From a virus, in UHGV virus genome UHGV-0036853: a DNA stretch of 64,000 nucleotides; one strand, 5' to 3'. Within the stretch, counting starts at the first letter, position 1; each line of letters begins with the position of its first letter. This document shows positions 12,296-56,280 of this stretch, one piece after another. Below the pieces are notes generated by a model. That model ran no database searches and was not told where the DNA came from. It saw nothing but the letters and a program-made list of their open reading frames with translations. The position numbers were made by a program, and so were the translations under genes.

Positions 12296-12330
12296 GAAAA
12301 CAAATTGTTTACTAGTGTGTTTAATGTAGC
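12296..12330 (-). promoter_or_regulatory. conserved AAACAAnTTGTTT-type motif upstream of vWA gene
   Basis: motif family 2. Confidence 0.5.
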
Positions 12331-13227: not shown

Positions 13228-14325
13228 AAAATTTACACGAATAAGCTCTGTTGATAGACGATCTCCCTTGAATTTGTGGTCAATTTCGTCTAAATCCGGT
13301 TGCTCTACGATTGATGCGATGTACGTCGAGAAACTTTCTAAGGCGTCTCGCATCTCGTCCATATAATCGTGCCGGTCGTAGACCCGATCTATCCCCTCAA
13401 GACTGTGGTTCATGATTTTGCGTGATACCTCCTGGCTTATGCCTAATGCTGGGAAGTAACTACGCGCAGTACGGCGCAAATCTCGGGGTGTAAATGGCTC
13501 AAGCTCCATCAGTTCTGGTCTTTCCAGAATACGACGTAATGCCTGGGCTATTGCCACTTTGGACATAGGAAGGTCTTTCCCGATTTTTTTATTCGAAGGC
13601 ACGAGCCACTGGCTGTCTTTACCGTATTCGAACAACTCTTCAATGCATGTGCGCATTAATGTGCTTAAAGGCAGCGAATGCTCACGTGCTGACTTGTTTC
13701 TCTTGCCTTGATTCCAAACCCCACGCTTAAGATTGAACTCACTTTTTTTAGCCCGCAGTACTTCGTCAGGTCGTCTTGCTGATACAAGACACAGCCTGGC
13801 CGCCCATTTTGTACCAGCGCACACATTGAAGTAGTCCCATATATTCCAGAACACCCATACCTCTGCGTCGGTCAGCTTCCGCTCGCGAGGTGTGGGCTTT
13901 GCGCCACCGGCAACTTTGTTTAGTGACATATCGTTTAACGGTGACACGTCTATCATCCCCTGGAAGGCGCACCAGCTAAGGAACTGCTTCATCAGAGAGA
14001 AAACGCGGCGGCCCATAACAATTTTGCCATCCAGTATTAGTGGGTTGACCAGTTGGTTCACCATGAACCTATTAATGTCACTTACTTTTACATCGGCAAT
14101 GTGCGGCAAAACATGTATCAAAATACAATGAACAGCGATCTCTGGCCGACGTCTGGTTATCAGCAGAGATAAGCGAGTGAATAACATGAATGCGTCCGAG
14201 AATCTCATATCATTGCTAACCTGCGAGATCATAACGGCCTGCATTTGAGATGCTCTTTCGAGATACTCAATCGCCTCTTTTGAGGTGTTCTCCGCAGCGC
14301 GTGCTCTGTCAAAGCTATTTTTCAT
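13222..14325 (-). CDS. tyrosine recombinase / integrase
   Basis: C-terminal catalytic region with RDLRRTARS, NHSLEG and Y in DRHDYMD. Confidence 0.75.
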   Translation of the reverse strand: MKNSFDRARAAENTSKEAIEYLERASQMQAVMISQVSNDMRFSDAFMLFTRLSLLITRRRPEIAVHCILIHVLPHIADVKVSDINRFMVNQLVNPLILDGKIVMGRRVFSLMKQFLSWCAFQGMIDVSPLNDMSLNKVAGGAKPTPRERKLTDAEVWVFWNIWDYFNVCAGTKWAARLCLVSARRPDEVLRAKKSEFNLKRGVWNQGKRNKSAREHSLPLSTLMRTCIEELFEYGKDSQWLVPSNKKIGKDLPMSKVAIAQALRRILERPELMELEPFTPRDLRRTARSYFPALGISQEVSRKIMNHSLEGIDRVYDRHDYMDEMRDALESFSTYIASIVEQPDLDEIDHKFKGDRLSTELIRVNFS

Positions 14326-14413
14326 ATGACAATCACCGAGTTACGCCGATTCACTGTATAAGTAAACAGTATATTAGGCATAGATTCTTATAGGATCAAG
14401 AGTAAAAGTAACT

Positions 14414-14446
14414 CATTTTCACTAATGATTCCATACATAGTAGGTA
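14414..14446. promoter_or_regulatory. perfect 13-bp-arm inverted repeat, candidate operator
   Basis: aatgattccatac atagtag gtatggaatcatt; half-site copies near 17238-17254 and 18251-18267. Confidence 0.5.
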
Positions 14447-14509
14447 TGGAATCATTTAGACGTTGTTTTTTGAATTTTAAGGGAAACAGGAGTGAGTTTG
14501 GTGGGAATA

Positions 14510-14533
14510 AAAAAACGGCTCCTGTGAGCCGTT
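14510..14533 (-). terminator. intrinsic terminator downstream of glutaredoxin gene
   Basis: hairpin cggctcctgtgagccg followed by T-run on minus strand. Confidence 0.55.
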
Positions 14534-14537
14534 AAAA

Positions 14538-14783
14538 TCAGAGGGTGCTGACGTATGCAGCCAGTTCTGTGTATCCGCCAATCGGCTGGCCATCGATCAG
14601 CACCTGGGGGATAGTCTCTACCGGTTTACCAACAATTTCACTTAGTTTTTCCTTGTCGATACCGGCAGTGGTGATGTCGATGTACTCATAATCACCGTAG
14701 CCATGTCCCTTTAGTTGCTTCGCCAGCTCGACTGCACGTTTGCAGTATGAGCAGTTATCTCGTCCGTAGATAGTGATCGTCAT
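14538..14783 (-). CDS. glutaredoxin (GrxA/NrdH-like)
   Basis: CSYC active site; KPVETIPQVLIDGQPIGGY matches the glutaredoxin fold. Confidence 0.8.
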   Translation of the reverse strand: MTITIYGRDNCSYCKRAVELAKQLKGHGYGDYEYIDITTAGIDKEKLSEIVGKPVETIPQVLIDGQPIGGYTELAAYVSTL

Positions 14784-14956
14784 AACCTAACAAATACCTT
14801 TATAAATATTGATTCGAACATATCAGACTATACTACAAACAGATTTTTTTGATAAGTATGTAGTAACTTATTGATTGACTGGTAAACAATTGAAGTGATT
14901 ATGACAATAGATTACAGTAAGGATTGCCTTGAAATGTACATTTTATAGAGGTTTTA

Positions 14957-15865
14957 ATGATTGGTAAGTTGTCTGATTCTTTGATTGAAAATAAATACAA
15001 CGAATTTAGAGAAGAAATATCTTTACTTTTTGACTATTTAAATCAGATAAATGATACAACAAAGAAAAATATAAAACGTCTTCTAAAAGAAGTGGAGTAT
15101 GCACAGAATCCAGATACTATTATTAATATTAATGAAACTATTAAGATTAAGTGTGGCACAACGTTAGCTCGCCATTTATGTTCAAACCCATATACAGGTT
15201 CAACATTAGAGATAGGTAACAGCGCCATTGATTTAGAAGAAAAGATAAGATTGTGTAATGTTTTGAAGAATAAACAATATCAGTGGGTTATTACTGAAGC
15301 CTATGAGTTACTGGAAGACTATATTGAGGCAATATATGTCTATACTGTATGTGTTCGAAATGATTTCTGGTCCTCAAGTAATTTTGGTAAGGTTGAAGAT
15401 GATGACATTGGGAAAGGGGAAGTTTATTACAAATTATTAAAAGCAAAAAGTAACCCATCGAAAAAAATAATTAAAATTTTCAGAAATAAAATACCTGGCT
15501 TCAAAGAGATAGAAATAAACAACAAGATTGGTAAAAACTATCGCTTTAACATCAAGCTAATTGAACTACTAAGACATACAATAGTACACAATAGTGGACG
15601 ATTCAATGATACAGAAAAATTTATAAATAAGGTTTTAGATGAATCTGAAATAAACGGTAAGAAAAGAGTTATTGGAGAAAGAGCTGTTAGAAGTTACATT
15701 GCTAAAGTGCAAGAAGATGATATTGTAATGCTCTTAGAAAGACCATCTGAAATTTTTGGTTCTTTTGGTGGTTATTTTAACAGAGCAAAATTTTTACTAA
15801 GTGATATTTTAGAATACTCACTAATCATTAAAGAAGAACTAAAATCATATCTAGGCAATCATTAA
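14957..15865 (+). CDS. AT-rich accessory protein, possible HEPN-type (Abi-like) protein
   Basis: 302 aa, low GC by eye, Rx4H motif RHTIVH, own terminator; functional call is weak. Confidence 0.4.
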   Translation: MIGKLSDSLIENKYNEFREEISLLFDYLNQINDTTKKNIKRLLKEVEYAQNPDTIININETIKIKCGTTLARHLCSNPYTGSTLEIGNSAIDLEEKIRLCNVLKNKQYQWVITEAYELLEDYIEAIYVYTVCVRNDFWSSSNFGKVEDDDIGKGEVYYKLLKAKSNPSKKIIKIFRNKIPGFKEIEINNKIGKNYRFNIKLIELLRHTIVHNSGRFNDTEKFINKVLDESEINGKKRVIGERAVRSYIAKVQEDDIVMLLERPSEIFGSFGGYFNRAKFLLSDILEYSLIIKEELKSYLGNH

Positions 15866-15869
15866 CAAA

Positions 15870-15896
15870 AAAAGGGGCCGAAGCCCCTTTGAATTT
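15870..15896 (+). terminator. intrinsic terminator
   Basis: ggggccgaagcccc hairpin followed by T-rich tract. Confidence 0.7.
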
Positions 15897-16044
15897 TGCG
15901 CTGAAAAAAGTGTTGCTAGGATGTTAGCAAGCTATGGTTAAGAACGTCTGCCGTAATTGTCTATCACAGCGTTGAGCGGTCTGGTTTATGTTAGCGGAGT
16001 CTTAATCTGGGTGATTAAAAGGCCAAACCGCTCAACGCTGTGTC

Positions 16045-22613: not shown

Positions 22614-23954
22614 TTAGGTAACGTCTAAGATCCGCTCAATGAAGCGCATTTGTTCGAGGTTTTGTTTAACACGAATGCTGATCCCTCCCTGCTGGTTACG
22701 TGAACCAGCAAAGTAGAGACGAGCCTCTCCTTTCGCTTCTTCTTCTTCGGTTTTGTTGATCGTTATTACCAGGTCAGCAATACGTACTTTTTCGATGTTG
22801 TCGGCGGCGTGCATCATTGTGGCAACTTCTGACGCGCCACCTTCACGGTTTGTCTGCGATGCCGTGATTCCAGCAACGTTATGTTTGTCATAAAGAGCAC
22901 GTAAATCGGTGTAGATACTACGAATGTTGGCGCGATCATCACGAAGGTCATAACTGGCACGCATCAAATCTGCGTAGTCGACAACAAGCATGTCAGGCAC
23001 CATGCCATTGGCTTTCATACTGTTAAGCATACGGTCCAGATCTGCCGGTGACATACTTCCTGACGGACGCTCAACAACCCACAAACTACCAATCCCCTTA
23101 GTGGCTCCCAACTCTGCCAACTTACGATGAACTTCATCGCGCCGTTCCACCAGCTTGGACATTTCCGTCTCCGACAATCTTGCATCAAAGCGGTCGGACA
23201 AAATGTTGGTGTGAACCTCCAGCGAGAGATACAGAACATTGTAGCCAGCAAGCGTTGCGTTTATGGAAAACTCACCCATTGCGGTCGATTTACCGGATTT
23301 AGCGAACCCCATGAAGAGCACCATTTCGCGCTTTGCCCAGCCTTTTTGGTACAGCAACCTATCGAGAAGAGGGAGTCCTGTTGTAATACTGTTTGGTACA
23401 TACTCCTCTGAAGCCTCATATTCACGCGCTTTCAATCGCTCACTTGCGGAGGTGTAGTAGTCATAGATTCCGGTCGCTTCGTTCGATCCAATCTGCTGAA
23501 CCTTGGCCATGATTGCCATCGCCCCCTGAAAGTCGCCTTTCTCTTTCAGTTCAGCAGCCTTAATCAGAGCATCATCAAACGCTACGCTTTTTGCGAAGGT
23601 TGATACCTGGTCAACCATGTACGAGGTATCGGACAATTTTTCTGCAAGGATGCGCTTAAACGCAGCAACAACATCGGCGAATAGTTCCTCACGGATAGTC
23701 TTATCGCGTTTCGCACGCTTAAGCATATCCAGAATTGCAGATGAAGAGGGCGCGCTCTTGTACATACGGTAATAGCCCGAAACCATATTAACCAATATGG
23801 CATTGGCCGCATTGGCAAATTGGCTAGGTACAACAAGATCTCCCGCACGAGTAAGAAACTCGTGATCACGACAAAAATAGGCCGTCAATCTGTTCTGAAA
23901 ATCTTCATCAAACTCTTCGGACAGCCCGCGTCCTGTATGGCAAAGTTCTGTCAT
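22614..23954 (-). CDS. DnaB-like replicative helicase
   Basis: Walker A GFAKSGKST, Walker B LVVDYADLM, RecA-fold C-terminal domain. Confidence 0.7.
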   Translation of the reverse strand: MTELCHTGRGLSEEFDEDFQNRLTAYFCRDHEFLTRAGDLVVPSQFANAANAILVNMVSGYYRMYKSAPSSSAILDMLKRAKRDKTIREELFADVVAAFKRILAEKLSDTSYMVDQVSTFAKSVAFDDALIKAAELKEKGDFQGAMAIMAKVQQIGSNEATGIYDYYTSASERLKAREYEASEEYVPNSITTGLPLLDRLLYQKGWAKREMVLFMGFAKSGKSTAMGEFSINATLAGYNVLYLSLEVHTNILSDRFDARLSETEMSKLVERRDEVHRKLAELGATKGIGSLWVVERPSGSMSPADLDRMLNSMKANGMVPDMLVVDYADLMRASYDLRDDRANIRSIYTDLRALYDKHNVAGITASQTNREGGASEVATMMHAADNIEKVRIADLVITINKTEEEEAKGEARLYFAGSRNQQGGISIRVKQNLEQMRFIERILDVT

Positions 23955-24747: not shown

Positions 24748-24855
24748 CTGGTAGGTAGTTACTTACTTATCACAATGAGCGGATGATAGCGACTGGTGTC
24801 AGTTTTTGGAAGTGAAAACGGAAGGGAGTTGTTCTGGTGGGTGTCTTTTAAAAGA

Positions 24856-24910
24856 CCTGCTTCCGTATATATATTTAATAAGTTACTTATTATTTAAATA
24901 CAGAAACAGG
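24856..24910. repeat. large imperfect palindrome A with flanking conserved tail (agctgccagaccgg)
   Basis: arms cctgcttccgtatatat / atacagaaacagg around the TAAGTTACTTA core. Confidence 0.7.
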
Positions 24911-24940
24911 TTCTGATTGAAGCTGCCAGACCGGAAGTTG

Positions 24941-46079: not shown

Positions 46080-47336
46080 CTATCGAGAACCACCAAGAAT
46101 AACACGGTTTTTGACTGGATACCTACGATGTACTGGATAGCCCAATGCGTCTGCACTATGCTCAATGCCACCTGTCTTATCCATATCTCGTGTTCCAGGC
46201 TTGTAGATGACTTTTTCCAGTGAATCAATCAAATGCTTGCACTTCGGATCGATATACAACCGGATATCTCCAGATGCGGTCATCAGCATTCGGTTAACAG
46301 CATTAACACGATCCGCAATTGGCGGGTGCTTTTTCGAATAATCGACACGTAAGAATCCCTTCTCTTTGAAAATGTCGACGTCAGACTCCCCGCGAGCATG
46401 TTGGCGATAAGCACCTGCCGGATCTGGAAATACCGTTATCTGTGATTTCCAGCGCCAGAAGCGTCTCTCAAGCTCATCACAAACCTCTGCCGTGTTAGAG
46501 GAAAAGAGCACCAATTCATCAATTGCCCATAGCTCGCCGTTTGGCTGAGGTTGCAAAATTACGGAAGACATCGGGTCAATGTTGAAGTCCTGTCCTACCC
46601 ATATAGGCAACCGAGGGTTGAATTGAAGCGGTTTAACATGCACGTTACGATCGAACGGGTAGTAAACGCGACCGGACATGTTCTCAAAGCTGGCTAGGTA
46701 CTCCTGAGCGAACGATTTGGGGTCCATATCGTTCTTAGCAGCTTCAATTTCCGCCGTAGGTACAAACGGAGAATCGGCAGTTACAAACTGCCAGCTCTTC
46801 CACTGTCCCTTTCGTTGCAGCTCTACGTTCTGACCTATAGTCCACAGTTTGTGAAATTCCGAGAAGCCTTTTGGCGTTCCAATGATCAGTGCACCGCCGC
46901 GTGTCGATGAAAGAGTTGGTCGTAGTACCTTGTACCAGGTATCAGCCTTCATATCCTGAAATTCATCAAGCACTACAAAATGCAACGCAACGCCGCGCAG
47001 AGTGTCAGGCTTATCAGCACCTTTAAGGGCGATCTCCGAACCGTTCTTCAACACGATTGTCATCGTGGTGTCGTTCTTTTTCCTAACCCACTTACGAGGC
47101 AGAACTTCCTGTAGATCGTCCCACAAAATCTGACGAGCCATCTGATAAGTCGGGGCGACATACCAGACCCTTTGCTTTTTTTCCTTTGCAGCCGCACGAA
47201 TAATAGTTGAGATCGACAACCGGGATTTCCCCCAGCGTCGACCAGCACAAACAACTTTAAATCGATGCGGTGACTGGAAGACTTTCATCTGTCCAGAATG
47301 CAACTGCACAAGACTTAGAGAGGACGGGATTGCCAT
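46080..47336 (-). CDS. terminase large subunit
   Basis: Walker A CAGRRWGKS, Walker B FVVLDEF, C-terminal nuclease-like region. Confidence 0.8.
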   Translation of the reverse strand: MAIPSSLSLVQLHSGQMKVFQSPHRFKVVCAGRRWGKSRLSISTIIRAAAKEKKQRVWYVAPTYQMARQILWDDLQEVLPRKWVRKKNDTTMTIVLKNGSEIALKGADKPDTLRGVALHFVVLDEFQDMKADTWYKVLRPTLSSTRGGALIIGTPKGFSEFHKLWTIGQNVELQRKGQWKSWQFVTADSPFVPTAEIEAAKNDMDPKSFAQEYLASFENMSGRVYYPFDRNVHVKPLQFNPRLPIWVGQDFNIDPMSSVILQPQPNGELWAIDELVLFSSNTAEVCDELERRFWRWKSQITVFPDPAGAYRQHARGESDVDIFKEKGFLRVDYSKKHPPIADRVNAVNRMLMTASGDIRLYIDPKCKHLIDSLEKVIYKPGTRDMDKTGGIEHSADALGYPVHRRYPVKNRVILGGSR

Positions 47337-47968
47337 TATTCGTCCTCCCCTTCACTTCCATCATCTGTCGCATCAAATTCGCTTAGAGCTTCTTCTTCCA
47401 AAGTCTCAAGCAATTCGTCATCGATGATTTCAGGCTCGTCGTCTTCCTGACGTAATTTCGCCACCTGGGAAGGTGTAAGCTCACCAAATACCAAGTTCGG
47501 AATTTCTTCCTCGTCATTTTCTGCATGATCCATACCCAACGCTTTGGACGAAACTTCAAAGCATTTTGCAAGGGTATTACTTGCTCTCTGTAAGCTCTTG
47601 AGAGAATCCTCAATCGCCCCTAAAGGCTTACCCTCACGTTTGGCCGTAGTGACTTCGACCATCACCATCTGCCCCAACGCATACGCCCAGCCGTCATAAC
47701 GTGTACGACGTTCTTCTATCTTTTCCGCACGGGCTTTAGCGCGAAGCTCTGCGTCAGATTTAAGAGACTCACGAACCATCTTCCCAACAGAGTCCGCGCC
47801 TTTCTCTAATCCTCGCTTTTTGAAATGTCTGGAGAGTGTTTCACGACGAATGCCGTACTCTTCCTCCAGCTTTGAGAGTGTATATTCGCCTGACGTCCAT
47901 TTGGCTTCAGCTTCGGCCCACTCAGCTGGTGTCAGGCGAGTTTTTACCTCGTCTTTTTCGACCGTCAT
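47336..47968 (-). CDS. putative terminase small subunit
   Basis: HTH-like N-terminus, acidic C-terminal tail, coupled to large subunit. Confidence 0.45.
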   Translation of the reverse strand: MTVEKDEVKTRLTPAEWAEAEAKWTSGEYTLSKLEEEYGIRRETLSRHFKKRGLEKGADSVGKMVRESLKSDAELRAKARAEKIEERRTRYDGWAYALGQMVMVEVTTAKREGKPLGAIEDSLKSLQRASNTLAKCFEVSSKALGMDHAENDEEEIPNLVFGELTPSQVAKLRQEDDEPEIIDDELLETLEEEALSEFDATDDGSEGEDE

Positions 47969-48007
47969 AGATCCCTCTAAAACACACAGAGCGCGTCCAT
48001 GCGCTCT

Positions 48008-48066
48008 AAAACAACTTGTTTACTGCATCTGCTAACCAACTTGTTTTCTGGGGTGTTTAATTAGGT
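48008..48066 (-). promoter_or_regulatory. two motif family 2 copies upstream of terminase small subunit gene
   Basis: aaaacaacttgtttac and ccaacttgttttctgg. Confidence 0.5.
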
Positions 48067-48085
48067 CTGGGCATATCTTACTAAG

Positions 48086-48140
48086 CCTGCTTCCGTATAT
48101 ATTTAATAAGTTACTTATTATTTATATATACAGAAGCAGG
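48086..48140. repeat. large near-perfect palindrome B, second copy of element A
   Basis: arms cctgcttccgtatatat / atatatacagaagcagg around the TAAGTTACTTA core; followed by agctcccagaccg. Confidence 0.75.
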
Positions 48141-48164
48141 TCTTTAAATAAGCTCCCAGACCGA

Positions 48165-48431
48165 TTACATCACCAGTAACTTCGCTTTGGCTCGACCTAA
48201 AGTGGTTAACCCAAGAGTCCGGCGGTGATAGCGATTGTCACTGCGTTGGCGCGTATGCCCTTTCTCCACCAGCCCCTTTTTTATCAGAGCGCGAATTGAG
48301 AACTGGATACTTTGCTTGGTTGTCTTGTACGGCAAAACTTCAAGCAATTCGTCCAGATCAAGTAGATGACCTCGCTCATAACCGAGATTGAGCGTTTTGA
48401 TGATGTCCTTTTGTTTATCGGTTAACGTCAT
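48165..48431 (-). CDS. small winged-HTH-like DNA-binding protein
   Basis: SIQFSIRALIKKGLVEK helix pattern; last gene of operon. Confidence 0.35.
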   Translation of the reverse strand: MTLTDKQKDIIKTLNLGYERGHLLDLDELLEVLPYKTTKQSIQFSIRALIKKGLVEKGHTRQRSDNRYHRRTLGLTTLGRAKAKLLVM

Positions 48432-48440
48432 GGCAAATCC

Positions 48441-49331
48441 TTATGCCGGTAAAGCAATTTCTAACGGTTTATCCAAAGGTTGTTTGTCGAATGCCAGCAG
48501 TGGCAGCGTGTCAGGCAGTCGACGGCCAAAGTCAGGGTTTCGGTACACACCATACAACGGAGACGTAAAGCTCAGGTTGTGAATGTCCTTGAGCAGCTTC
48601 ACAATGCTGGCCTCGTCCACCAGACTGTCGGCAATGTCCTGAATCGTCGTGCCACGATTCCGCCCAGCTTTTGCCAGGGAACTGTTCTTGTGGTAGTCCG
48701 CCACCAGATCACGCAGTGCACGGCGACGACGAGACTCGCTCATTGCGAACAACTCTTTGACGATCGCCTCGTTATCACCCGGGTCAGAACGGAAATGGCG
48801 CTGGAATACACGCAGTGCACTTTCATAGCTCTTCGGTCGCTCAGGGCGGATGAACTTAAACCCTGCTTTCATGGCGAAGGGATTGTATTTGCTCATCGAG
48901 GACTGGATCTCAATGATTGGCCGGTCATGCATCCTGCTAACCAGGTTAATCATTCGATAAGAGACGCCTACGCCACGATACTGAGTATCCACAACTGAGC
49001 GACTGATCACCGCAAAGTTGTTATTCACGTACCGACCCCAGTACTGGTTAGCCACGGTGGTATTAGTGGTTGGTTTCAACTTAGGAAACATGCGGTGGCG
49101 AGGTGCCAACAGTAGTTTCGGGTAAGCCATAACCACGACGCCCACCAGACGGTCATCAAGTTCGCAGCGATAGTAAGTTGGCGCGAAAGGTTTGCCGTCT
49201 GTTTTGTAGTGAAGCGACTTAAGAGCGTGCCAGTCCTCTACAGTTCCCTTTGTAACAGTCATTCGCTCCAGAAAGTCCAGATGACGCGGAAACTCTTCAG
49301 GGCGGTAGCGTTTAATGATGATGTCCGTCAT
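48441..49331 (-). CDS. GNAT-family acetyltransferase-like protein
   Basis: QYRGVGVSYRMIN resembles the GNAT acetyl-CoA binding motif. Confidence 0.45.
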   Translation of the reverse strand: MTDIIIKRYRPEEFPRHLDFLERMTVTKGTVEDWHALKSLHYKTDGKPFAPTYYRCELDDRLVGVVVMAYPKLLLAPRHRMFPKLKPTTNTTVANQYWGRYVNNNFAVISRSVVDTQYRGVGVSYRMINLVSRMHDRPIIEIQSSMSKYNPFAMKAGFKFIRPERPKSYESALRVFQRHFRSDPGDNEAIVKELFAMSESRRRRALRDLVADYHKNSSLAKAGRNRGTTIQDIADSLVDEASIVKLLKDIHNLSFTSPLYGVYRNPDFGRRLPDTLPLLAFDKQPLDKPLEIALPA

Positions 49332-49993
49332 GAATGGACCTCATCGTGACTACCATTGTGATATTCCACCTTCACGCGTTCTTTGTAGTGCTTGGTGATC
49401 TGCATATCCGGGCGCAGCGCGTTCTTCAGGTCTTCGTGAGTCGTCGCCACCATTACCGTCGCACCAACCTTTCGAGCGGCACGCTGGAGGTTAGACGCCA
49501 CAACCTGAGCGGTTACACGGTCGAGAACAGCGCCGAACTCGTCAGCAGCCCACACTTTAGCGCCTGACTCAATCAGTTTGGCAATCTTGAGACGATATTT
49601 CTGGCCGTCTGACATTTCAGAAGGCTTGCGAACAAACAGATATGCATCGTTCAGACCAGCCATAGATAACAACCCAAGCGCATCACTGGTCGTTTTGCCC
49701 AACTGATCGATGACGTTAACCTCATTATCGAAGGTAAAATCATCGATGGAGGCTACAGACAGCCCTTCATCCTTCATCTGTCGTTGCAACTCGCGCAGCA
49801 CAACGGATTTGCCGGAACCGGATTGGCCGGTGATGTACACCACATCGCCCTGCTTCACTTCCAGCTCCAGATTGTCGTAAAGCGTCCACTCTTTTTCGTC
49901 CAGGCCAAGCCCGAACGACTCAGCGATTTCCAACGTGCGCGTGGTTTTATTTACGCGTGTCTGAAACGATACGTTGATGATGTATTTGCTCAT
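49328..49993 (-). CDS. stand-alone ABC-type ATPase
   Basis: Walker A GQSGSGKS, signature-like MSDGQKYR, Walker B VWAADEF, H-loop TTHE. Confidence 0.7.
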   Translation of the reverse strand: MSKYIINVSFQTRVNKTTRTLEIAESFGLGLDEKEWTLYDNLELEVKQGDVVYITGQSGSGKSVVLRELQRQMKDEGLSVASIDDFTFDNEVNVIDQLGKTTSDALGLLSMAGLNDAYLFVRKPSEMSDGQKYRLKIAKLIESGAKVWAADEFGAVLDRVTAQVVASNLQRAARKVGATVMVATTHEDLKNALRPDMQITKHYKERVKVEYHNGSHDEVHS

Positions 49994-50691
49994 GCAGCCA
50001 TCTCCCCGGAAGAGATCTTCTCCGCATATGCCACAAATGCGTCTACCCCGCTTTCTCCCGTCATTTCTTCCATGTGGGCAAGCAAATCACCAACAACAAT
50101 GGCAGAGCCAGCAGGGAGCGTTTTAAAGCCCAATACGTCGACAACACGTACTTCTTCCGCTGCAACTTCACGACTGATCTCGGTGTGTTCATCCTTCTGT
50201 CGTTTAGTTTCTTCGCCAAGATCGATAACTAGCGAGTCGGTGTCCATTTCTTCTGTCATACTGCCAACGAGAACATTCAACTCACGCTCTTCAAAGCCGA
50301 AAACCTCGATATCGTCCAGAACAAGCGACTCAAGCTCTTTCTGTAGCTTAATTGCATCGTAATCAATGCTGGCAAGTCGGTTATCTTCAAGGCGCTTCGC
50401 ACGAACCTCGTCATCACTGAGATCATCGCGAACAATAACCGGTACGCGCTCAAGTCCAGCAAAAATTGCAGCCTCACGGCGGCCGTGGCCAGTAATAATT
50501 ACGTCGTTCTTATCGACCGTAATTGGCTGGTCAAATCCGCGCTTTTTAATGGCTGCGGCTAGATCTCGGATCTGCTGTTCATCATGCTTTTTGGCATTCA
50601 TCTCATAGGGAATAAGATCTGCCGGGTCGCGATATACGATTTCAAACTTTTTGGTCATTACATACGCTCCTTGTAGTAGTCGACCAGCCAC
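49990..50691 (-). CDS. ParB/Srx-like domain protein
   Basis: ParB N-domain motif ITGHGRREAA. Confidence 0.65.
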   Translation of the reverse strand: MAGRLLQGAYVMTKKFEIVYRDPADLIPYEMNAKKHDEQQIRDLAAAIKKRGFDQPITVDKNDVIITGHGRREAAIFAGLERVPVIVRDDLSDDEVRAKRLEDNRLASIDYDAIKLQKELESLVLDDIEVFGFEERELNVLVGSMTEEMDTDSLVIDLGEETKRQKDEHTEISREVAAEEVRVVDVLGFKTLPAGSAIVVGDLLAHMEEMTGESGVDAFVAYAEKISSGEMAA

Positions 50692-51356
50692 ACCAGAGCC
50701 TCACCAGCGTTCTCCATTTCATTACCGGTGTTAATAGCCTGTTCTTTGATGATGTTTTTTATGGTTTCTGCAACACGATCTGACGCATCGAAAGTTACTT
50801 TGAAGCGCATGGTCTGATGTTCCGCACCCACACGTTCGGTTTTCTCCCGTTTGTCGGTATCGACAGGCTCATCACTACCACGAGACAACGCCTCCAGTGC
50901 TTCAAGGTCGATTGCCGCCTCTTTTGCTAAAACCATCGAGATTTCGTCGTCATACGGGGCGATTTCAGACAGTTGATAGTCAAGTTCTGACTGAATTTCT
51001 TCAATGAAGCGTTGCAATGCGATTTGGTCGTCTTCACCGTATCGCTCGTTGTCCACCAGTGACATCTGTTTAGCTACGACATCGCTAATTTTGCCCACAG
51101 AAAGCACTGGAACCGTTGAAATTCCTTGCTCAATAGCGGCACGCCAGCGATGTTCACCGCCGAGGATTTCAAAAAATCCATCTTCAAGTTCACGAGCCAA
51201 AATTGGCTTAAAAAAGCCCAATTTTTCGATAGAACCTTTCAGTTTTTCAAAATTCTGCGCACCAACCGAATTGGTGTTCCAGGTATTCGGGCGAAGGTTG
51301 GCAACATCAACCTGCAAAATCGTGATTTTTACATCCATTTTATTGCTACAATCCAC
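50658..51356 (-). CDS. ParB/Srx-like domain protein
   Basis: ParB N-domain motif ILGGEHRWRAA. Confidence 0.65.
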   Translation of the reverse strand: MDCSNKMDVKITILQVDVANLRPNTWNTNSVGAQNFEKLKGSIEKLGFFKPILARELEDGFFEILGGEHRWRAAIEQGISTVPVLSVGKISDVVAKQMSLVDNERYGEDDQIALQRFIEEIQSELDYQLSEIAPYDDEISMVLAKEAAIDLEALEALSRGSDEPVDTDKREKTERVGAEHQTMRFKVTFDASDRVAETIKNIIKEQAINTGNEMENAGEALVWLVDYYKERM

Positions 51357-51420
51357 TAAGTAATCACTTACTTATTATAATAGCCAAATAACATACAAAA
51401 GGCACTAAGGAAAGAGGTTT

Positions 51421-52980
51421 ATGACTGTTCGGATTGTATCTAACGCAGTAAATGCGCTTATTTCTGGCGCAGATGACAAGGTAAAGCAACTGGTGCAGCA
51501 AATGTTGAGCTACGAAGTCGAGACTGGCGACTGGAAGGGCACAAGCACGATGTTCAACTGGAGTAAAAACTCGTTCCCTGCTGGCTTTGCCAAGCCTGTA
51601 GCGGCGAACTTGAACAAGGCGGGCATCAAATGTGTTCATATCCGCAAAGACAAAGCCCCGGCGCTTGGTAAACCAAATCCGGCGGTTAACCCATTCCCAT
51701 ACAATCCTGATTATGCGTATCAGGATCAGACTGTGGAAACACTGGTTCGAGAGGGAATGATGATTGCGCAGATCGCTACTGGTGGCGGGAAATCTAACGT
51801 TGCCTGCAAAGCAGCTGCACGTATCGGTCGAATGACATTATTTTTAACAACCCGCTCTGTTCTGATGTTTCAAATGGCCGAAAACTTCCAGAGATCCATC
51901 GACTACCGCGCCGAAAATGGCGAACCGTGGTTAAAAGACCAAAAGGTTGGAGTCATTGGCTCGGGTGAGTTCCAGGTATCACGACATATCAACGTCGCTA
52001 CAGTTCAAACTCTTGCAAGTTTCCTCGAAGAACCACCACGCGATGCAACACCAGATAAGAAAAGCTACCACCTCAAACGTCGGGAGTTGGTGAAACGCTT
52101 CCTTTCAAGTGTCTCTCTTCTTATTCTGGAAGAGGCGCATGAGTCTTCAGGCTCAAATTTCTATGACATCGCCAGATTATGTGTGAACGCAGACTATCGT
52201 CTGGCGCTTACAGCCACGCCGTTCATGAAGGATTCGACGGAAGCCAACATGCGCCTGATGGCGGTGGCCGGGCGAATTGAAATTAAAGTCACAGAAAAGT
52301 ACCTGATTGATCGAGGCATTCTGGCAAAGCCGTACTTCCTTTATCATAAAGTTGCCTACAAGCCAGACGAGGCCAGAATCAAGGCCGAACTTGCCAACAA
52401 ACACCTAAATTTTAGAGTAGGTATGAGCACTGCCTACCAAAAGGCTTATCAGCTGGGCATCGTGTATAATTTGGGACGTAACGAGGCCATAGTACGAGAT
52501 GCATTGCTCTATAAGCAACATTCTCTCAATTGTATGACTCTGGTTCGTCTTAAACGCCACGGGCAAATCCTGATGGAAATGATGAAAGAGTCCGGCCTTA
52601 GAGTTGACTTCATCTATGGGGAATCTAACCAGGCCACAAGGCAAGCAAAGCTGAACAGTTTAGCGTCTGGAGAAATAGATGTTTTAATAGGCTCGACTAT
52701 TCTGGATGTCGGTGTTGATGTGCCAAGCGTTGGCGCGGTCATTCTTGCTGGTGGTGGGAAAGCAGAAGTTGAAATGAGGCAGCGTGTCGGTCGTGGCTTA
52801 CGAGCCAAGAAGAATCAGGCAAACGTATGTTTTATCACTGATTTTATTGACATTAGCAACAAATATCTGTTGTCTCACTCTTATGAGCGAAAACACATCA
52901 TCGACACCACACCTGGCTTTGCAGAAGGTGTATTGCCTATTGATGGCGCATTCGATTTTGGAGTTCTGAAACGAGATTAG
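51421..52980 (+). CDS. SF2 (DEAD/DEAH-like) helicase
   Basis: Walker A ATGGGKS, motif II LILEEAH, C-terminal helicase domain. Confidence 0.75.
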   Translation: MTVRIVSNAVNALISGADDKVKQLVQQMLSYEVETGDWKGTSTMFNWSKNSFPAGFAKPVAANLNKAGIKCVHIRKDKAPALGKPNPAVNPFPYNPDYAYQDQTVETLVREGMMIAQIATGGGKSNVACKAAARIGRMTLFLTTRSVLMFQMAENFQRSIDYRAENGEPWLKDQKVGVIGSGEFQVSRHINVATVQTLASFLEEPPRDATPDKKSYHLKRRELVKRFLSSVSLLILEEAHESSGSNFYDIARLCVNADYRLALTATPFMKDSTEANMRLMAVAGRIEIKVTEKYLIDRGILAKPYFLYHKVAYKPDEARIKAELANKHLNFRVGMSTAYQKAYQLGIVYNLGRNEAIVRDALLYKQHSLNCMTLVRLKRHGQILMEMMKESGLRVDFIYGESNQATRQAKLNSLASGEIDVLIGSTILDVGVDVPSVGAVILAGGGKAEVEMRQRVGRGLRAKKNQANVCFITDFIDISNKYLLSHSYERKHIIDTTPGFAEGVLPIDGAFDFGVLKRD

Positions 52981-52982
52981 TT

Positions 52983-53261
52983 ATGAGCGAAAAGAAAACA
53001 ACTTATTGTCAGGTGGCATTGTCTGATAAGGCCAATGACAAACTTGGAAAGTTTCAAATGAAACTAAAAGAAAAAAACATCAAAATGTCTAAGGCTGAAG
53101 TTATCAATACCATCCTAGAGGCGATGACGATGGCTGAGTTTGATAAAGTTTCCTCTGCCGTTGGAGTCTCTGCTAAGGCTCGTGAGAAAATCATGCGCAT
53201 CTATGAAAACTCTAATATGACAAAGGAAGACCTAGAACAAATTCTAAGCAAACTGCCATAA
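52983..53261 (+). CDS. small hypothetical protein coupled to helicase gene
   Basis: ORF. Confidence 0.4.
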   Translation: MSEKKTTYCQVALSDKANDKLGKFQMKLKEKNIKMSKAEVINTILEAMTMAEFDKVSSAVGVSAKAREKIMRIYENSNMTKEDLEQILSKLP

Positions 53262-53515
53262 CATTTCGCATTCCCTCCATCCGCCAATTCCAAGATGTGC
53301 TTACTTGTAAAAGGAGCACATCAATTGATGCGGCCTAGAGAATGAATTTAATCAAGACAAACATTGAATGATTAATAGACTACGATAGTGTCCAACAGGG
53401 CATTCTCATGTGACATTTGTCACATTTTTAACCGCATAAGTCTCCGGCTGAAAAAAGTTCTTGATTGGCTGAATGATATTTGTAGGCTTATCAATGTTTA
53501 TAGCCGGAGGTGTGA

Positions 53516-54058
53516 ATGGGTGTACTTGACATTGATAGTAATTACTTAAGTGCAAGGCGAATAAAGGAATGTGTTCATATCTATTGTAAATCAAAGCAGT
53601 CTTGTTTAGAAAAGCAGGCGTACCTAACATCTTCTCAAAAAGGAGAGCACAAACTCATCAAATATAAACTAAAGGCTTCGCGCAAAGATCGTTATGAGCA
53701 CTATATATACGTAAAGGATATTGAAGGTACCAAGACAAATTGCGGTATTATCTTTTATCCCTATGATATATCAAGACTGTTCTCCATTATGAAATCCTGT
53801 GTCGGCGTAGCTCCAGGTAAATTAGAGTTGCATTCAAACTTATACGATTACCCAAATGCTCAAAAACTGATAAACGATAGCACTTCGTCCTATGGATTTT
53901 CGTTTCTCTTTAAGAATCATCTCGCATTGAAAGATTTCATCGAAAAATACAATGAAGGAATAATATCAGGCGAATTAAATTTCAACAAAATCTGCGGAGA
54001 TATAAAAAGGGACGACCTCTTAATAGATATTTACAACAGAACCCAAGTTAACGTGTAA
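53516..54058 (+). CDS. hypothetical protein (AT-rich island)
   Basis: ORF, low GC. Confidence 0.45.
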   Translation: MGVLDIDSNYLSARRIKECVHIYCKSKQSCLEKQAYLTSSQKGEHKLIKYKLKASRKDRYEHYIYVKDIEGTKTNCGIIFYPYDISRLFSIMKSCVGVAPGKLELHSNLYDYPNAQKLINDSTSSYGFSFLFKNHLALKDFIEKYNEGIISGELNFNKICGDIKRDDLLIDIYNRTQVNV

Positions 54059-54085
54059 CCATCCATTAATCATAGCCAGACAAAT

Positions 54086-54505
54086 ATGAAAGTAACAAAC
54101 CTAATTATTTTAACACTAGCCACATCACTAATTGGGTGTTCATCTTCATCTATATCTGTTTCAAAGGCAAAGTATGCACCTCAAAGCAGAATATTTAAAT
54201 ATCAAACACCACATGAGTCTAGTCTAACAATAGTTAGAGACAAAGGGCTGGTTGGTTCTGGATGTAACGCTTCCATATTCATCAATGGAGAAACGGCAGC
54301 AAAATTGGAACCTGGTGAAAAAGCAACTTTCTATCTTAATGAAGGAGATTGGATCGTTGGGACATCAATTGAAAGTTCAGGTCTTTGCGCATTTAACCCC
54401 TCTAGGATGGAGCGAGAAATAAAACTAAAGCAAGGCGACGCGAAAACATATCGGGTTTTCACTACCTGGGATGGTACAATGGATATATTGCCAACCACTT
54501 TATAA
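54086..54505 (+). CDS. lipoprotein (AT-rich island)
   Basis: lipobox LIGC. Confidence 0.5.
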   Translation: MKVTNLIILTLATSLIGCSSSSISVSKAKYAPQSRIFKYQTPHESSLTIVRDKGLVGSGCNASIFINGETAAKLEPGEKATFYLNEGDWIVGTSIESSGLCAFNPSRMEREIKLKQGDAKTYRVFTTWDGTMDILPTTL

Positions 54506-54509
54506 TGAT

Positions 54510-55034
54510 ATGACGACGAAAGACATCACCTACGGTGTGCCAGCAGAAGTCTGGCCTCGAGATTACACTAACGTTGAAAAACTACTGATGTTCTGGCGCA
54601 GAGAACAAATTCCTGTAAGGGCCACTCTCGAAGATGGTCAGGCGTTTTGCATGTACGTTTATGGCCTCATGCCATCTCGTAACAAAGTTGACCTTTGCCC
54701 AGCCCCTTTTGACAAAGAAAATCGTATAAGGCTCCCAATTGAACGCATTAGTACAATTGAATCAGGTGTGGTTGACAGTATCGCTCACGATTTCAAAGGT
54801 CGACTAACAGTTCACCCTGATTATGTCGATAATCGGCCATCACGCCGCGATTTTTTTGCAATTTGCAACCAAGCCTACAAAGCAAACAAATCTATAAGGG
54901 TGTACATGGCGGATGGCCGTGAAATTGAGGGGGTGTCAGCAGGCGCAGATGCTTGTCAGGTTACACTACGTGTCGAGAACGGTAGAAAAATAGTTGTTTT
55001 GTTCGATTGGGTTGAACGAATTTTGCCTTTTTGA
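54510..55034 (+). CDS. hypothetical protein (AT-rich island)
   Basis: ORF; start moved to ATG after upstream stop. Confidence 0.45.
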   Translation: MTTKDITYGVPAEVWPRDYTNVEKLLMFWRREQIPVRATLEDGQAFCMYVYGLMPSRNKVDLCPAPFDKENRIRLPIERISTIESGVVDSIAHDFKGRLTVHPDYVDNRPSRRDFFAICNQAYKANKSIRVYMADGREIEGVSAGADACQVTLRVENGRKIVVLFDWVERILPF

Positions 55035-55037
55035 GTT

Positions 55038-55346
55038 ATGAAATCGATATTGTTACCACCATTATTTTTACTTTGCTCAGTTGCGGCAAATGCAATGGAC
55101 TATAAGCCTGTCATTCAGTCGCTGATGAATGACGTGTGCTCAACGTCTCAGAATGTATCAGTTTGCATGTATCAATTTTCGGCAGCCGTAAAAGCAGGAA
55201 AAGCGATAGGTGAGAATGTGGAACTGTGTAAGAAAGTGGCAAATGAAGAACGAGCAATGTTGGATTGCGAATCTAGCGAGTCATCGGCACAGTTCGTTGA
55301 TGCGCTATTTGACACCAATCGTAAGGCTGTAGAGTCTGTCCAATAA
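55038..55346 (+). CDS. small secreted Cys-containing protein
   Basis: signal peptide ending ANA. Confidence 0.5.
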   Translation: MKSILLPPLFLLCSVAANAMDYKPVIQSLMNDVCSTSQNVSVCMYQFSAAVKAGKAIGENVELCKKVANEERAMLDCESSESSAQFVDALFDTNRKAVESVQ

Positions 55347-55536
55347 ATCTATAAGGTTAATAACCGGCTAAGTCCGGTTATTATTTTTCACATCACTTCT
55401 TTATATCTATAAATCAAATAATCTAAATATATATAAGGTCGAAAGCCGTAATCGATTATTTATTTAGGGAACACCTTCGACGATCTCGCTTTTATTTCTA
55501 GGACTTTCATCCCTGCAAAAAATTTTAAAAAAACAC

Positions 55537-55564
55537 TTGCAATCTTTTTTCGCGTATCGATAAT
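55537..55564 (+). promoter_or_regulatory. sigma70-like promoter for 55630 gene
   Basis: TTGCAA, 16-bp spacer, GATAAT; strong RBS AAGGA before ATG. Confidence 0.5.
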
Positions 55565-55629
55565 TGAACTCGTCGAAAGCGAAGACGCTAACGACAATAA
55601 ATTTTAAATTTACATAAGGAAAAATTATC

Positions 55630-56280
55630 ATGGCTAACATTATCATTTCTAAAAAATCCATCATTGAAGCTGCTTCCATTGTATCCGATGAACTGCGCGA
55701 AAAAGCAGATCTGGCAACTCAAACATATAACGAACATTATAAAAATGGTACGCACACTAAAGCAGACAAAGCAAATATGCAAGCTGCGACCACTAAACTT
55801 GCTTACTTCATCAACAACGTCGTAAACGCAGTAGAAGACGAAAAATTATGCTCTGTTTTCTACTATGCGATTAAAGCAAGCAAACAAGCGCCAGAAGTAT
55901 TTTTCCGTGATGCAATGACTAATAGTTATTCACTGGAAAAACTGGTTTATCTGGTTAAATCCATTAAAGCTGGTAAATGCGTTTATTCCGTCGCTGATAT
56001 GTCAGGATCTCGTGTATTCGCTTTAATCGATATGATTAACGACGAGATCGACACGTTCACTAATGGCGCTGTTTTCGATTTAATGAATGAAGCTAAAAAA
56101 GCGTGCGAAATTAAATTGGACGCTGGCTATACTCAAGCCAACCAGTTGATCAATCTTTGCGAACGTCTCGGACTTGTTGAGAAAGTCAAAGGAGCTGGGA
56201 GCGCAAAAGCTGGTACTCAGCAATATCGCTTCATTAAAAATGATTTCTACAATTATTTAGCTGATGCTTTCAAAGCGTAA
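55630..56280 (+). CDS. hypothetical protein with own strong promoter
   Basis: 216-aa ORF. Confidence 0.55.
   Translation: MANIIISKKSIIEAASIVSDELREKADLATQTYNEHYKNGTHTKADKANMQAATTKLAYFINNVVNAVEDEKLCSVFYYAIKASKQAPEVFFRDAMTNSYSLEKLVYLVKSIKAGKCVYSVADMSGSRVFALIDMINDEIDTFTNGAVFDLMNEAKKACEIKLDAGYTQANQLINLCERLGLVEKVKGAGSAKAGTQQYRFIKNDFYNYLADAFKA

Follow-up and report, generated by a model that had tools for sequence, protein, structure and literature searches.

What do two ParB-like proteins, an ATP-binding cassette (ABC) ATPase, a GNAT-fold protein and a small winged-helix protein do together when their genes are packed into one operon of a phage-plasmid? This question is raised by positions 48165–51356 of the virus genome UHGV-0036853, which was analysed here as a stretch of 64,000 nucleotides (hereafter the window). 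The window is an SSU5-like phage-plasmid, and its region 47300–52000 shares 98.5–99.3% identity with Escherichia phages CMS-2020a, PhiR41_1 and Cyrano, against about 85% with Salmonella phage SSU5 and about 80% with Klebsiella relatives. A first-pass annotation of the sequence had described the five genes as a tightly coupled operon and a candidate undescribed system, with DNA modification, exclusion and an accessory role in packaging as guesses at its function. The results show that the ATPase and the GNAT protein correspond to the two halves of a large family of fused proteins and that a ParB_N domain is a recurrent third part, and this triad is best read as ParB-assisted viral DNA-modification machinery.

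Five coupled genes encode two ParB-like proteins, an ABC ATPase, a GNAT-fold protein and a winged-helix protein

All five co-oriented open reading frames (ORFs) are present on the minus strand, where they fill 51356–48165 in the order ParB1, ParB2, ABC ATPase, GNAT protein and p88. ParB1 (50658..51356) is an acidic protein with a ParB_N domain only; its ORF opens with GTG 51356, and the start is probably ATG 51338, which gives 226 amino acids. ParB2 (49990..50691) is a second, paralogous acidic ParB_N-only protein. Its likely start is ATG 50658, giving 222 amino acids, rather than the upstream GTG, because this ATG is preceded by an AAGGAG Shine-Dalgarno sequence, the alignment with PHROG 930 begins at residue 12 and the annotation of Cyrano uses the same start. 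These are followed by the stand-alone ABC-type ATPase of 221 amino acids (49328..49993), the basic GNAT-fold acyltransferase subunit of 296 amino acids (48441..49331) and p88, a basic winged-helix DNA-binding protein of 88 amino acids (48165..48431).

The junctions between these genes show tight coupling, as had been claimed. ParB1 and ParB2 share one nucleotide in TAATG when ATG 50658 is the start, ATGA overlaps join ParB2 to the ATPase gene (49993/49990) and the ATPase gene to the GNAT gene (49331/49328), and the gap between the GNAT and p88 genes contains GGA. The two ATGA junctions are as first described, while the gap is 9 nt and not 10 bp, and the 34-nt overlap reported at 50691/50658 requires ParB2 to start at GTG. 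The sole non-coding DNA upstream of ParB1 is the 64-bp divergent intergenic region 51357..51420, which is common to the operon and a helicase gene. It holds a TATAAT hexamer, a promoter scan of it found no full consensus, and from its sequence it is presumed to contain the operon promoter. Across the block, promoter and terminator consensus scans found sites no commoner than in shuffled sequence.

Both ParB proteins consist of the ParB N-terminal (CTPase-fold) domain only, and the Spo0J, Noc and ParB structures match over that domain alone. ParB1 matches Pfam ParB_N with E 3.3e-13 and PHROG 723 with E 2e-79, whereas ParB2 matches ParB_N with E 1.5e-8 and PHROG 930 with E 1e-112; the two are 33% identical across the N-domain. 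Neither gave a match to the helix-turn-helix (HTH) model HTH_ParB (PF17762) at E<=0.1, while this model does detect the 461-amino acid ParB of contig L133, and the region aligned to the Spo0J HTH is acidic. We compared 75 distinct ParB1 and 61 distinct ParB2 orthologues, which are only 27–40% identical (ParB1 33–40%). Conservation is highest in the nucleotide-pocket motifs, which are G-x-H-R and D-N-x-R-Y-G for ParB1 and P-Y-x-x-N-x-K-x-H and G-H-G-R-x-E-A for ParB2, and the C-terminal halves are acidic and poorly conserved. The isoelectric point (pI) of both proteins is 4.6, and it is uniformly about 4.6 among the orthologues. The ParA-interaction motif (L/F/I)G(K/R)G(L/F/I) occurs in 0 of 75 ParB1 and 0 of 61 ParB2 orthologues, and no ParA gene is found in or beside the block. 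The two proteins are not TerS orthologues either, as PHROGs 723 and 930 are labelled 'ParB-like partition protein' and a separate 210-amino acid TerS-like gene is present. The ParBs thus match neither of the two identities, small terminase subunit and centromere-binding ParB, that the first-pass annotation had set against its own proposal.

The ATPase is a complete ABC nucleotide-binding domain (Pfam ABC_tran, E 5.8e-13), and its motifs are intact: Walker A GQSGSGKS (G56-S63, K62), the signature MSDGQ (M127-Q131), Walker B VWAADE (D151-E152) and the H-loop THE (H186). No permease or transmembrane partner was found among the five proteins or the flanks. An ABC transporter was ruled out on this ground and because the partner of the ATPase, by fusion elsewhere, is the GNAT protein.

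For the 296-amino acid protein, sequence and profile searches of Pfam, NCBIfam and the PDB gave nothing significant, and the best Pfam match, Acetyltransf_10 (E 0.037), was under the gathering cutoff. Since sequence searches alone failed to resolve this protein, its assignment to the GNAT fold comes from structure prediction. The model has a GNAT domain at about residues 20–165, followed by a C-terminal domain of about 130 amino acids, and the Foldseek search placed NAT10, TmcA and Mom within the top 11 of 350,542 chains. The protein belongs to a cluster of 1,192 member sequences. The predicted structure of p88 (AlphaFold2 pLDDT 81.8) has the topology H-H-H-beta-hairpin-H, and Foldseek matched it to APE_0880a, AF1382, MepR and MarR with TM-scores of 0.70–0.76. 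All orthologues of the GNAT subunit and of p88 are basic, with median pI of 9.7 and 9.85, respectively. Taken together, the Pfam matches and predicted structures uphold the initial domain calls for all five proteins.

The block is a fixed core feature of the SSU5/Nickievirus/RHEph10 lineage

A total of 178 fetched loci were analysed with our own profiles, and the lineage of the window forms one cluster of 123 loci. The first scan of viral contigs gave near-identical relatives only; the diversity of the loci came from a search for contigs encoding relatives and from a second scan using an alignment of the fused proteins described below. The full order ParB–ParB–ABC–GNAT–p88–TerS-like–TerL was found in 106 of the 123 lineage loci, and most of the others are cut by contig ends. 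The ABC and GNAT domains are in separate genes in 120 of the 123 loci, and p88 gave 121 matches across them at a constant position. The same order is present in Pseudomonas phage nickie, Rhizobium phage RHEph10, Stenotrophomonas phage ANB28, an Ectothiorhodospira contig and a 3.27-Mb metagenomic contig, although the GNAT subunits of these distant relatives are only 41–47% identical to that of the window.

The flanks named at the outset are also as described. On one side lies the divergent gene of a UvsW-like superfamily-2 helicase (51421..52980, plus strand; matches to ResIII, DEAD and Helicase_C), and downstream lie the TerS-like gene (47336..47968, minus strand), TerL and the portal gene. 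The distant relatives share this layout, with the helicase, the divergent ParB–ParB–ABC–(0–3 small ORFs)–GNAT–small protein, a gap, and then TerS-like, TerL and portal genes; the helicase has the same divergent position in nickie, RHEph10, ANB28 and the loci L085 and L086. Nickievirus phages carry the block and have no annotated lysogeny genes. Because the same order and the same helicase and terminase flanks recur across the lineage, the block is a vertically inherited, fixed core feature of the SSU5/Nickievirus/RHEph10 lineage and not a mobile accessory island. Thus, the quintet is kept together elsewhere, which the first-pass annotation had proposed to check, whereas its picture of an accessory system inserted between helicase and terminase genes gives way to a core block that is also fixed in members described as non-temperate. 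The quintet as a unit is a property of this lineage, since the second ParB and the winged-helix protein were found only here; the meaningful core is the triad of ParB_N, ABC ATPase and GNAT.

Small unrelated ORFs (DUF2829, Phage_gp49_66, a RyR-domain protein and others) sit between the ABC and GNAT genes in the distant relatives (L002:5591-5926; L003:5339-5841 and 6479-6898; L085:8705-8995; L086:7961-8999), and RHEph10 and nickie have further inserts around the ParB genes. From these sequences, the ABC/GNAT interval looks like a hot spot for moron insertion within a fixed operon.

The ATPase and GNAT genes are the split form of a fused family that is linked to ParB

When the GNAT subunit was used in an exhaustive profile search, 942 relatives were recovered. 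Those beyond the phage family are mostly 440–560 amino acids long, match in their C-terminal half and are fusions of ABC_tran and GNAT by Pfam; therefore, the two genes of the window are a split form. By sequence comparison, this is the split form of COG2401, which is catalogued as 'ABC-type ATPase fused to acetyltransferase' and uncharacterised. The fused family is mostly virus-associated and has over 2,000 members, many of them in Bathyarchaeia, Nitrososphaeria and Methanocella and some in Firmicutes. Fusion of ABC and GNAT is by far the commoner state in the relatives, and 185 ABC-GNAT architectures were found among the fetched proteins. The catalytic residues of both ATPase and GNAT are invariant across 19 divergent fused members that are 19-43% identical. 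Split ABC and GNAT genes also occur in Oenococcus phage unk162. The strong association of the COG2401-type family with viruses and its partnership with ParB were not found in the literature searched. Among the variants of the fused family are P0168 (847 amino acids) and P0155 (665 amino acids); one variant has an intein/LAGLIDADG inside the ABC domain, and one has a C-terminal TFIIB-repeat domain.

The third part of the triad recurs next to this pair. Five unrelated phages, namely Streptococcus prophage 315.4, Gordonia Axumite, Gordonia Jace, Oenococcus unk162 and Leptospira LE3, have a ParB_N gene that runs into the start of ABC(-GNAT). On viral contig L133, a single ORF of 666 amino acids, which TerL follows, contains ParB_N (10–110), a Zn-ribbon, ABC (206–411) and GNAT (415–666). 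Pfam supports the ABC, GNAT and Zn-ribbon parts, and the ParB part matches ParB2 of the window by BLASTP with E 6e-6 and, in addition, solved ParB-family proteins (E 2.9e-5). ParB_N, ABC and GNAT are joined in one polypeptide in four separate 50%-identity protein clusters. The archaeal genome loci, mostly of Bathyarchaeia, contain 9 triple-fusion ORFs, a count of the clear cases, as many archaeal loci that match residues 1-401 of the fusion are missed by the ParB profile. Genes related to ParB_N-ABC(-GNAT) are multi-copy in some Bathyarchaeia metagenome-assembled genomes, such as MFD01476.bin.1.243 and MFD02416.bin.1.260 (L180-L255). A TerL-like gene lies within 4 kb in only 10 of 74 Bathyarchaeia loci, and the multi-copy genes may belong to an integrated element other than a tailed provirus.

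The genomic contexts of the fused genes were then compared. ABC-GNAT genes lie directly after TerL in Bathyarchaeial proviruses, upstream of the terminase and portal genes in a Desulfofarcimen prophage and immediately upstream of the gene for DNA polymerase III alpha in SPbeta-like phages of about 98 kb. They also lie beside genes for a primase-polymerase, a class II ribonucleotide reductase and an adenylosuccinate synthetase (PurA/PurZ-like). In one case, ABC-GNAT is fused to a family-B DNA polymerase (PolB; L115:2580-6362, P0199, 1260 amino acids), with RecA next door. On a 96-kb viral contig (L137:4905-7516), the ABC-GNAT gene overlaps the start of the PurA/PurZ-like gene. Phage PurZ enzymes make 2-aminoadenine genomes, and this overlap may link the module to another base-replacement pathway.

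The genes that directly follow ABC–GNAT encode several kinds of enzymes. ASCH-domain genes are found there in the Oenococcus and Streptococcus phages, with another ASCH gene nearby in the Desulfofarcimen prophage, and formyltransferase genes in Axumite and a Porphyromonas phage. Jace has genes for an aspartate decarboxylase and a family III CoA-transferase, which plausibly form a route to a beta-alanyl-CoA donor. An amidoligase, with or without gamma-glutamylcyclotransferase (GGACT), follows ABC–GNAT in two independent lineages. This set of neighbouring enzymes resembles phage base-hypermodification clusters (PMC8989533).

The operon may encode a ParB-assisted DNA acyltransferase

Taken together, these results lead us to favour, tentatively, the reading that the operon encodes a multi-subunit, ATP-driven and ParB-assisted acyl-CoA transferase acting on the phage's own DNA. 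We favour it because the three parts are linked by ABC/GNAT fusions with invariant catalytic residues, by the recurrent adjacency of ParB_N and by the triple fusions, and because the contexts (TerL, DNA polymerase III alpha, primase-polymerase, ribonucleotide reductase and the PolB fusion) are those of DNA and not of transport or partition. The neighbours typical of acyl or amino-acid chemistry and of modified-base handling point in the same direction, as do the basic GNAT and p88 proteins, the acidic ParBs and the presence of NAT10, TmcA and Mom in the Foldseek top 11. Published precedents exist in a ParB-activated dioxygenase, in ParB-CTPase fusions and in the GNAT enzymes Mom and PaMx11 gp48, which are compared below.

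We infer a DNA substrate, an acyl donor, a role for each accessory protein and a biological benefit as follows. The target would be a nucleobase or a base that already carries a modification, and the transfer would take place at about the stage of replication and packaging. The basic GNAT subunit would bind acyl-CoA, most simply acetyl-CoA, and perform the transfer, and the ABC ATPase, as its obligatory partner, would form an ATP-dependent dimer whose mechanical step opens access to the base in duplex DNA. The two acidic ParB_N proteins would serve as nucleoside triphosphate (NTP)-gated activators or loaders of the enzyme on double-stranded DNA (dsDNA), p88 might target the complex to DNA or regulate the operon, and the phage could gain protection from host nucleases. 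In a wider and more doubtful form of this proposal, ParB_N, ABC ATPase and GNAT would make up an unrecognised class of ATP-driven, ParB-activated DNA N-acyltransferases common to bacterial and archaeal tailed viruses, which leave an undescribed acyl mark that is acetyl, or of beta-alanyl or formyl type in some lineages.

Several observations weigh against this reading. The sequence of the ATPase is most like the nucleotide-binding domains of transporters and not like SMC, Rad50 or UvrA. The Foldseek matches to the GNAT domain are generic, as protein N-terminal and small-molecule acetyltransferases score equal to Mom, NAT10 and TmcA. A specific kinship with Mom, proposed from a correspondence of H-Y, R111 and Ser, was dropped, since the hhalign probability was 0.2% and only the generic motif A loop aligned. 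No ParB neighbour is present in 12 of the 19 ABC-GNAT clusters, which makes ParB a common partner but not an obligatory one. Enzymes for donor synthesis do not accompany the block in the SSU5 lineage, and the amidoligase and GGACT neighbours found elsewhere could equally be compatible with peptide or protein modification. The literature searched contains no report of modified DNA in these phages, DNA binding or modification by any subunit is a prediction, and N-acyl groups on exocyclic base amines can be unstable, as for N6-acyl-adenine (PMC13219725).

Palindromes, a ParA locus and a repeated motif lie around the block and elsewhere in the window

Directly after the p88 gene, as the first-pass annotation had noted, lies palindrome B (about 48064..48162), which is imperfect and about 95 bp long and has outer arms rich in GC around a core rich in AT (DNA fold -25.8 kcal/mol, z -7.85). 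A homologous copy that is about 75-80% identical, palindrome A (about 24838-24932), is found directly downstream of the ParA operon, following its 119-amino acid partner gene; the palindrome arm has one match elsewhere in the window versus 0 expected. Many dissimilar relatives have a comparable palindrome, with other arm sequences, where p88 and TerS meet. In GenBank, the linear records of SSU5 and Cyrano both stop within palindrome B at about 48103-48104, about 8 nt from the dyad centre. These ends could mean that palindrome B is a cos site beside terS, or merely reflect a shared convention of record orientation, and the element could be a cos-type site, a centromere or protein-loading site, or a shared terminator or operator. 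As each is encoded beside a palindrome copy, p88 and the 119-amino acid partner of ParA were compared, and kinship between them was ruled out (BLASTP E 0.52).

The ParA locus (25968-24941, minus strand) is separate from the block, 23 kb away, and confirms the partition-type locus initially reported near 25 kb. It consists of a ParA/MipZ-type ATPase of 222 amino acids and the overlapping partner gene, whose 119-amino acid product has no family match. Adjoining it is the gene of a DnaB-like helicase of 446 amino acids (22614-23954, minus strand), and together they form the part of the element that serves plasmid maintenance and replication.

The near-palindromic motif AACAAnTTGTT occurs 23 times in the window versus 2.0 expected, including at 12299, 23975, 26005, 48010, 48035, 52997, 57905, 58390, 59140, 60043, 60528, 61724, 62402 and 62453. 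Sites are found upstream of parA, of the DnaB-like helicase gene and of the TerS-like gene; the last has two motifs at 48008-48047, and a related inverted pair is at the equivalent place in Pseudomonas phage nickie (L002:4318-4357). The motif is probably, by its distribution, a conserved operator or promoter element of an unnamed regulator. Its presence upstream of the TerS-like gene suggests that the terminase genes are transcribed apart from the quintet. The TerS-like protein itself is acidic and 210 amino acids long, matches PHROG 867 'DNA binding domain' (E 2e-100) and has no match in Pfam, NCBIfam or the PDB; its stop overlaps the start of TerL, and its position points to a TerS role.

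On the other side of the block, after the helicase gene, a conserved 92-amino acid protein is encoded at 52983-53261 (plus strand) in the window and also in relatives (PHROG 1466, E 1e-45), with a weak likeness to a transcriptional-repressor PHROG (E 5.5e-4). The G+C content falls to 0.36 at 14001-16000 and 0.39-0.41 at 52001-56000 versus about 0.47 elsewhere, with GC and AT skew reversed, and these may be recently acquired accessory regions.

Other functions of the operon are less probable

The conserved place of the block directly upstream of the TerS-like and TerL genes, as a full ordered set in 106 of 123 loci, would fit an accessory of packaging or genome organisation. The ParBs, the ABC ATPase and the winged-helix protein would then assemble on the palindrome as a cos/pac-type site by terS and present concatemers to the terminase, and the GNAT protein would acetylate the terminase, the portal or a nucleoid protein, or be regulatory. 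The location a few genes upstream of TerL in 315.4, Axumite, LE3, L133 and L087 and directly after TerL in archaeal viruses fits this role, and so does the positionally conserved palindrome between the block and terS, inside which the SSU5 and Cyrano linear records end. We nevertheless consider it unlikely, since the fused gene is also found in replication and nucleotide modules far from the terminase (SPbeta-like phages, Nonlabens P12024S, L134, L135, L137 and the PolB fusion), the ParBs have no recognisable DNA-binding domain, the TerS-like gene seems to have its own AACAAnTTGTT elements, and the strictly conserved acyl-CoA site would be left unexplained. The palindromes have also to be considered as centromeres of a second partition or incompatibility system, in which the ABC ATPase would replace ParA. 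Two ParB_N proteins are present, the homologous copy of palindrome B adjoins the ParA locus, and Pfeifer et al. (PMC7969092) took duplicated ParB genes of related phage-plasmids as partition genes. Such a function is nonetheless highly improbable: both ParBs are acidic, without HTH_ParB and, among the orthologues, without a single ParA-interaction motif, the window has a ParA and partner locus elsewhere, and the block is equally conserved in Nickievirus phages without annotated lysogeny functions. It would also leave the invariant GNAT partner and the ParB-ABC-GNAT fusions unexplained, and the same results bear out the initial view that this is unlikely to be the primary partition system.

Two further alternatives keep the acyltransferase but change its substrate. 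ABC-GNAT could acetylate a host protein or a small molecule, such as a defence effector, a signalling nucleotide or an antibiotic-like toxin, in host takeover or anti-defence, with the ParBs as adaptors or DNA mimics. The module is spread widely among viruses and is not part of cellular core genomes, proteins and small molecules are frequent substrates of the GNAT superfamily, the acidity of the ParBs is strong, one neighbour in a Porphyromonas phage is annotated as 'acr candidate', and amidoligase, GGACT and SocA_Panacea neighbours are found in a prophage. Typical anti-defence loci are variable, whereas this block is vertically inherited and fixed in position; the PolB fusion and the adjacency to polymerase and terminase genes point to the DNA metabolism of the virus itself, nucleic-acid binding is suggested by the basic GNAT subunit and the winged-helix protein, and no PADLOC system matched, which together make an anti-defence role quite improbable. 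The combination of ATPase and GNAT follows the logic of TmcA/NAT10, which also gave the longest Foldseek alignments (250-397 columns), and the enzyme might as an analogue form N4-acetylcytidine or a related modification in the tRNA or mRNA of the phage or its host. The ASCH domain is PUA-like, and one is present in E. coli YqfB, a hydrolase of N4-acetylcytidine. ASCH neighbours in two phages and the tRNAs near the block of phage nickie would agree with RNA as the substrate, and yet we regard it as very improbable, given that the ParB_N partners, the winged-helix protein and the DNA polymerase and TerL contexts point to DNA, that the ATPase is of ABC type and not the helicase-type module of TmcA, and that no tRNA gene is present in the annotated stretches examined of 315.4, Oenococcus unk162 and LE3 (whole genomes not scanned). 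Among the functions guessed initially, DNA modification is therefore now clearly favoured over exclusion, while an accessory role in packaging keeps the small probability given above.

If the DNA acyltransferase reading is true, an ABC ATPase coupled to a GNAT would be a new enzyme class, possibly adding a new chemical mark to the viral DNA modifications, and a function would be given to a family of more than 2,000 members that is now labelled 'ABC transporter' or 'general function prediction only'. The activation of DNA-modifying enzymes by a ParB fold, a very recent finding, would then apply to two unrelated types of enzyme, and to archaea as well as bacteria. As SSU5-like phage-plasmids are common in clinical Escherichia, Klebsiella and Salmonella, a DNA mark would affect restriction evasion, horizontal transfer and sequencing-based epigenetic surveys. 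Whatever the substrate, the triple fusion and the synteny across phyla define a three-component machine that can be tested, and the prediction is specific.

Comparison with known systems

The module did not correspond to a known defence system. PADLOC gave weak, domain-level matches only (the ParB part of MTase_II, mad3/mad8 and the PtuA P-loop) and none for the GNAT protein, so that such an identity was rejected, in agreement with the first reading. The module also stands as undescribed, as no paper on a combination of ParB, ABC ATPase and GNAT and no experimental characterisation of it were found in the literature searched.

Within the COG2401-type family, for example MK0520, the 221-amino acid ATPase and the 296-amino acid GNAT protein of the window are homologous to the two halves, with the same Walker A, signature, Walker B and H-loop residues and the same H-Y and R..V..P..G in the GNAT part, and the Cyrano and JGI annotations use this family name. 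The window differs in having the two domains in two genes with an ATGA overlap and in the extra C-terminal domain of about 130 amino acids in its GNAT protein. TmcA/NAT10 likewise couple a P-loop ATPase to a GNAT followed by a C-terminal region, which is nucleic-acid-binding in TmcA/NAT10, and use acetyl-CoA and ATP to modify a base in a structured nucleic acid (cytidine N4 in RNA). Their ATPase module is of helicase type in contrast to the ABC type of the window, the likeness is at the level of the fold with no sequence match, and the predicted substrate of the window enzyme is DNA.

Two phage enzymes show that a GNAT fold can act on DNA. Mom of phage Mu acylates adenine in dsDNA from Gly-tRNA (PMC13219725), and PaMx11 gp48 acetylates aminomethyl-uracil (5-aminomethyl-dU) in DNA (PMC8989533). 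Unlike the proposed enzyme, Mom needs neither an ATPase nor a ParB, and it has no specific sequence kinship to the GNAT protein of the window; gp48 requires a pre-installed aminomethyl group and the 5-hydroxymethyl-deoxyuridine pathway, none of whose genes was found within the block or next to it, the part of the window examined for them.

Compared with canonical ParB proteins of ParABS systems, the window ParBs have the N-terminal ParB/Srx (CTPase-fold) domain with box-II-like G-x-x-R and box-III-like D/E-N-x-R. They differ in being acidic, in lacking HTH_ParB or another centromere-binding domain, the ParA-binding motif and an adjacent ParA, and in having an ABC ATPase and a GNAT as operon partners. 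Iyer and colleagues were reportedly, in 2013, the first to propose roles of ParB in DNA modification. Kaljevic et al. 2025 (PMC12704722) showed that ParB-CTPase folds are widespread in phages, bind diverse NTPs and are found fused to methyltransferases, PUA-like domains and an acetyltransferase. O'Toole et al., PNAS 2026 (PMC13229309) described ParB176, a phage ParB-like protein with NTP-binding and C-terminal domains and no DNA-binding domain, which is encoded beside the thymine dioxygenase 5mYOX176 and is needed by it on dsDNA and not on single-stranded DNA. The partner in the window is an ABC ATPase with a GNAT instead of an Fe/2-oxoglutarate dioxygenase, the ParBs are two paralogues, and the activity is a prediction. 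As in ParB176, a DNA-binding domain is absent from the ParBs of the window, which are ParB_N-only proteins without an HTH, and their genes overlap those of the downstream enzymes.

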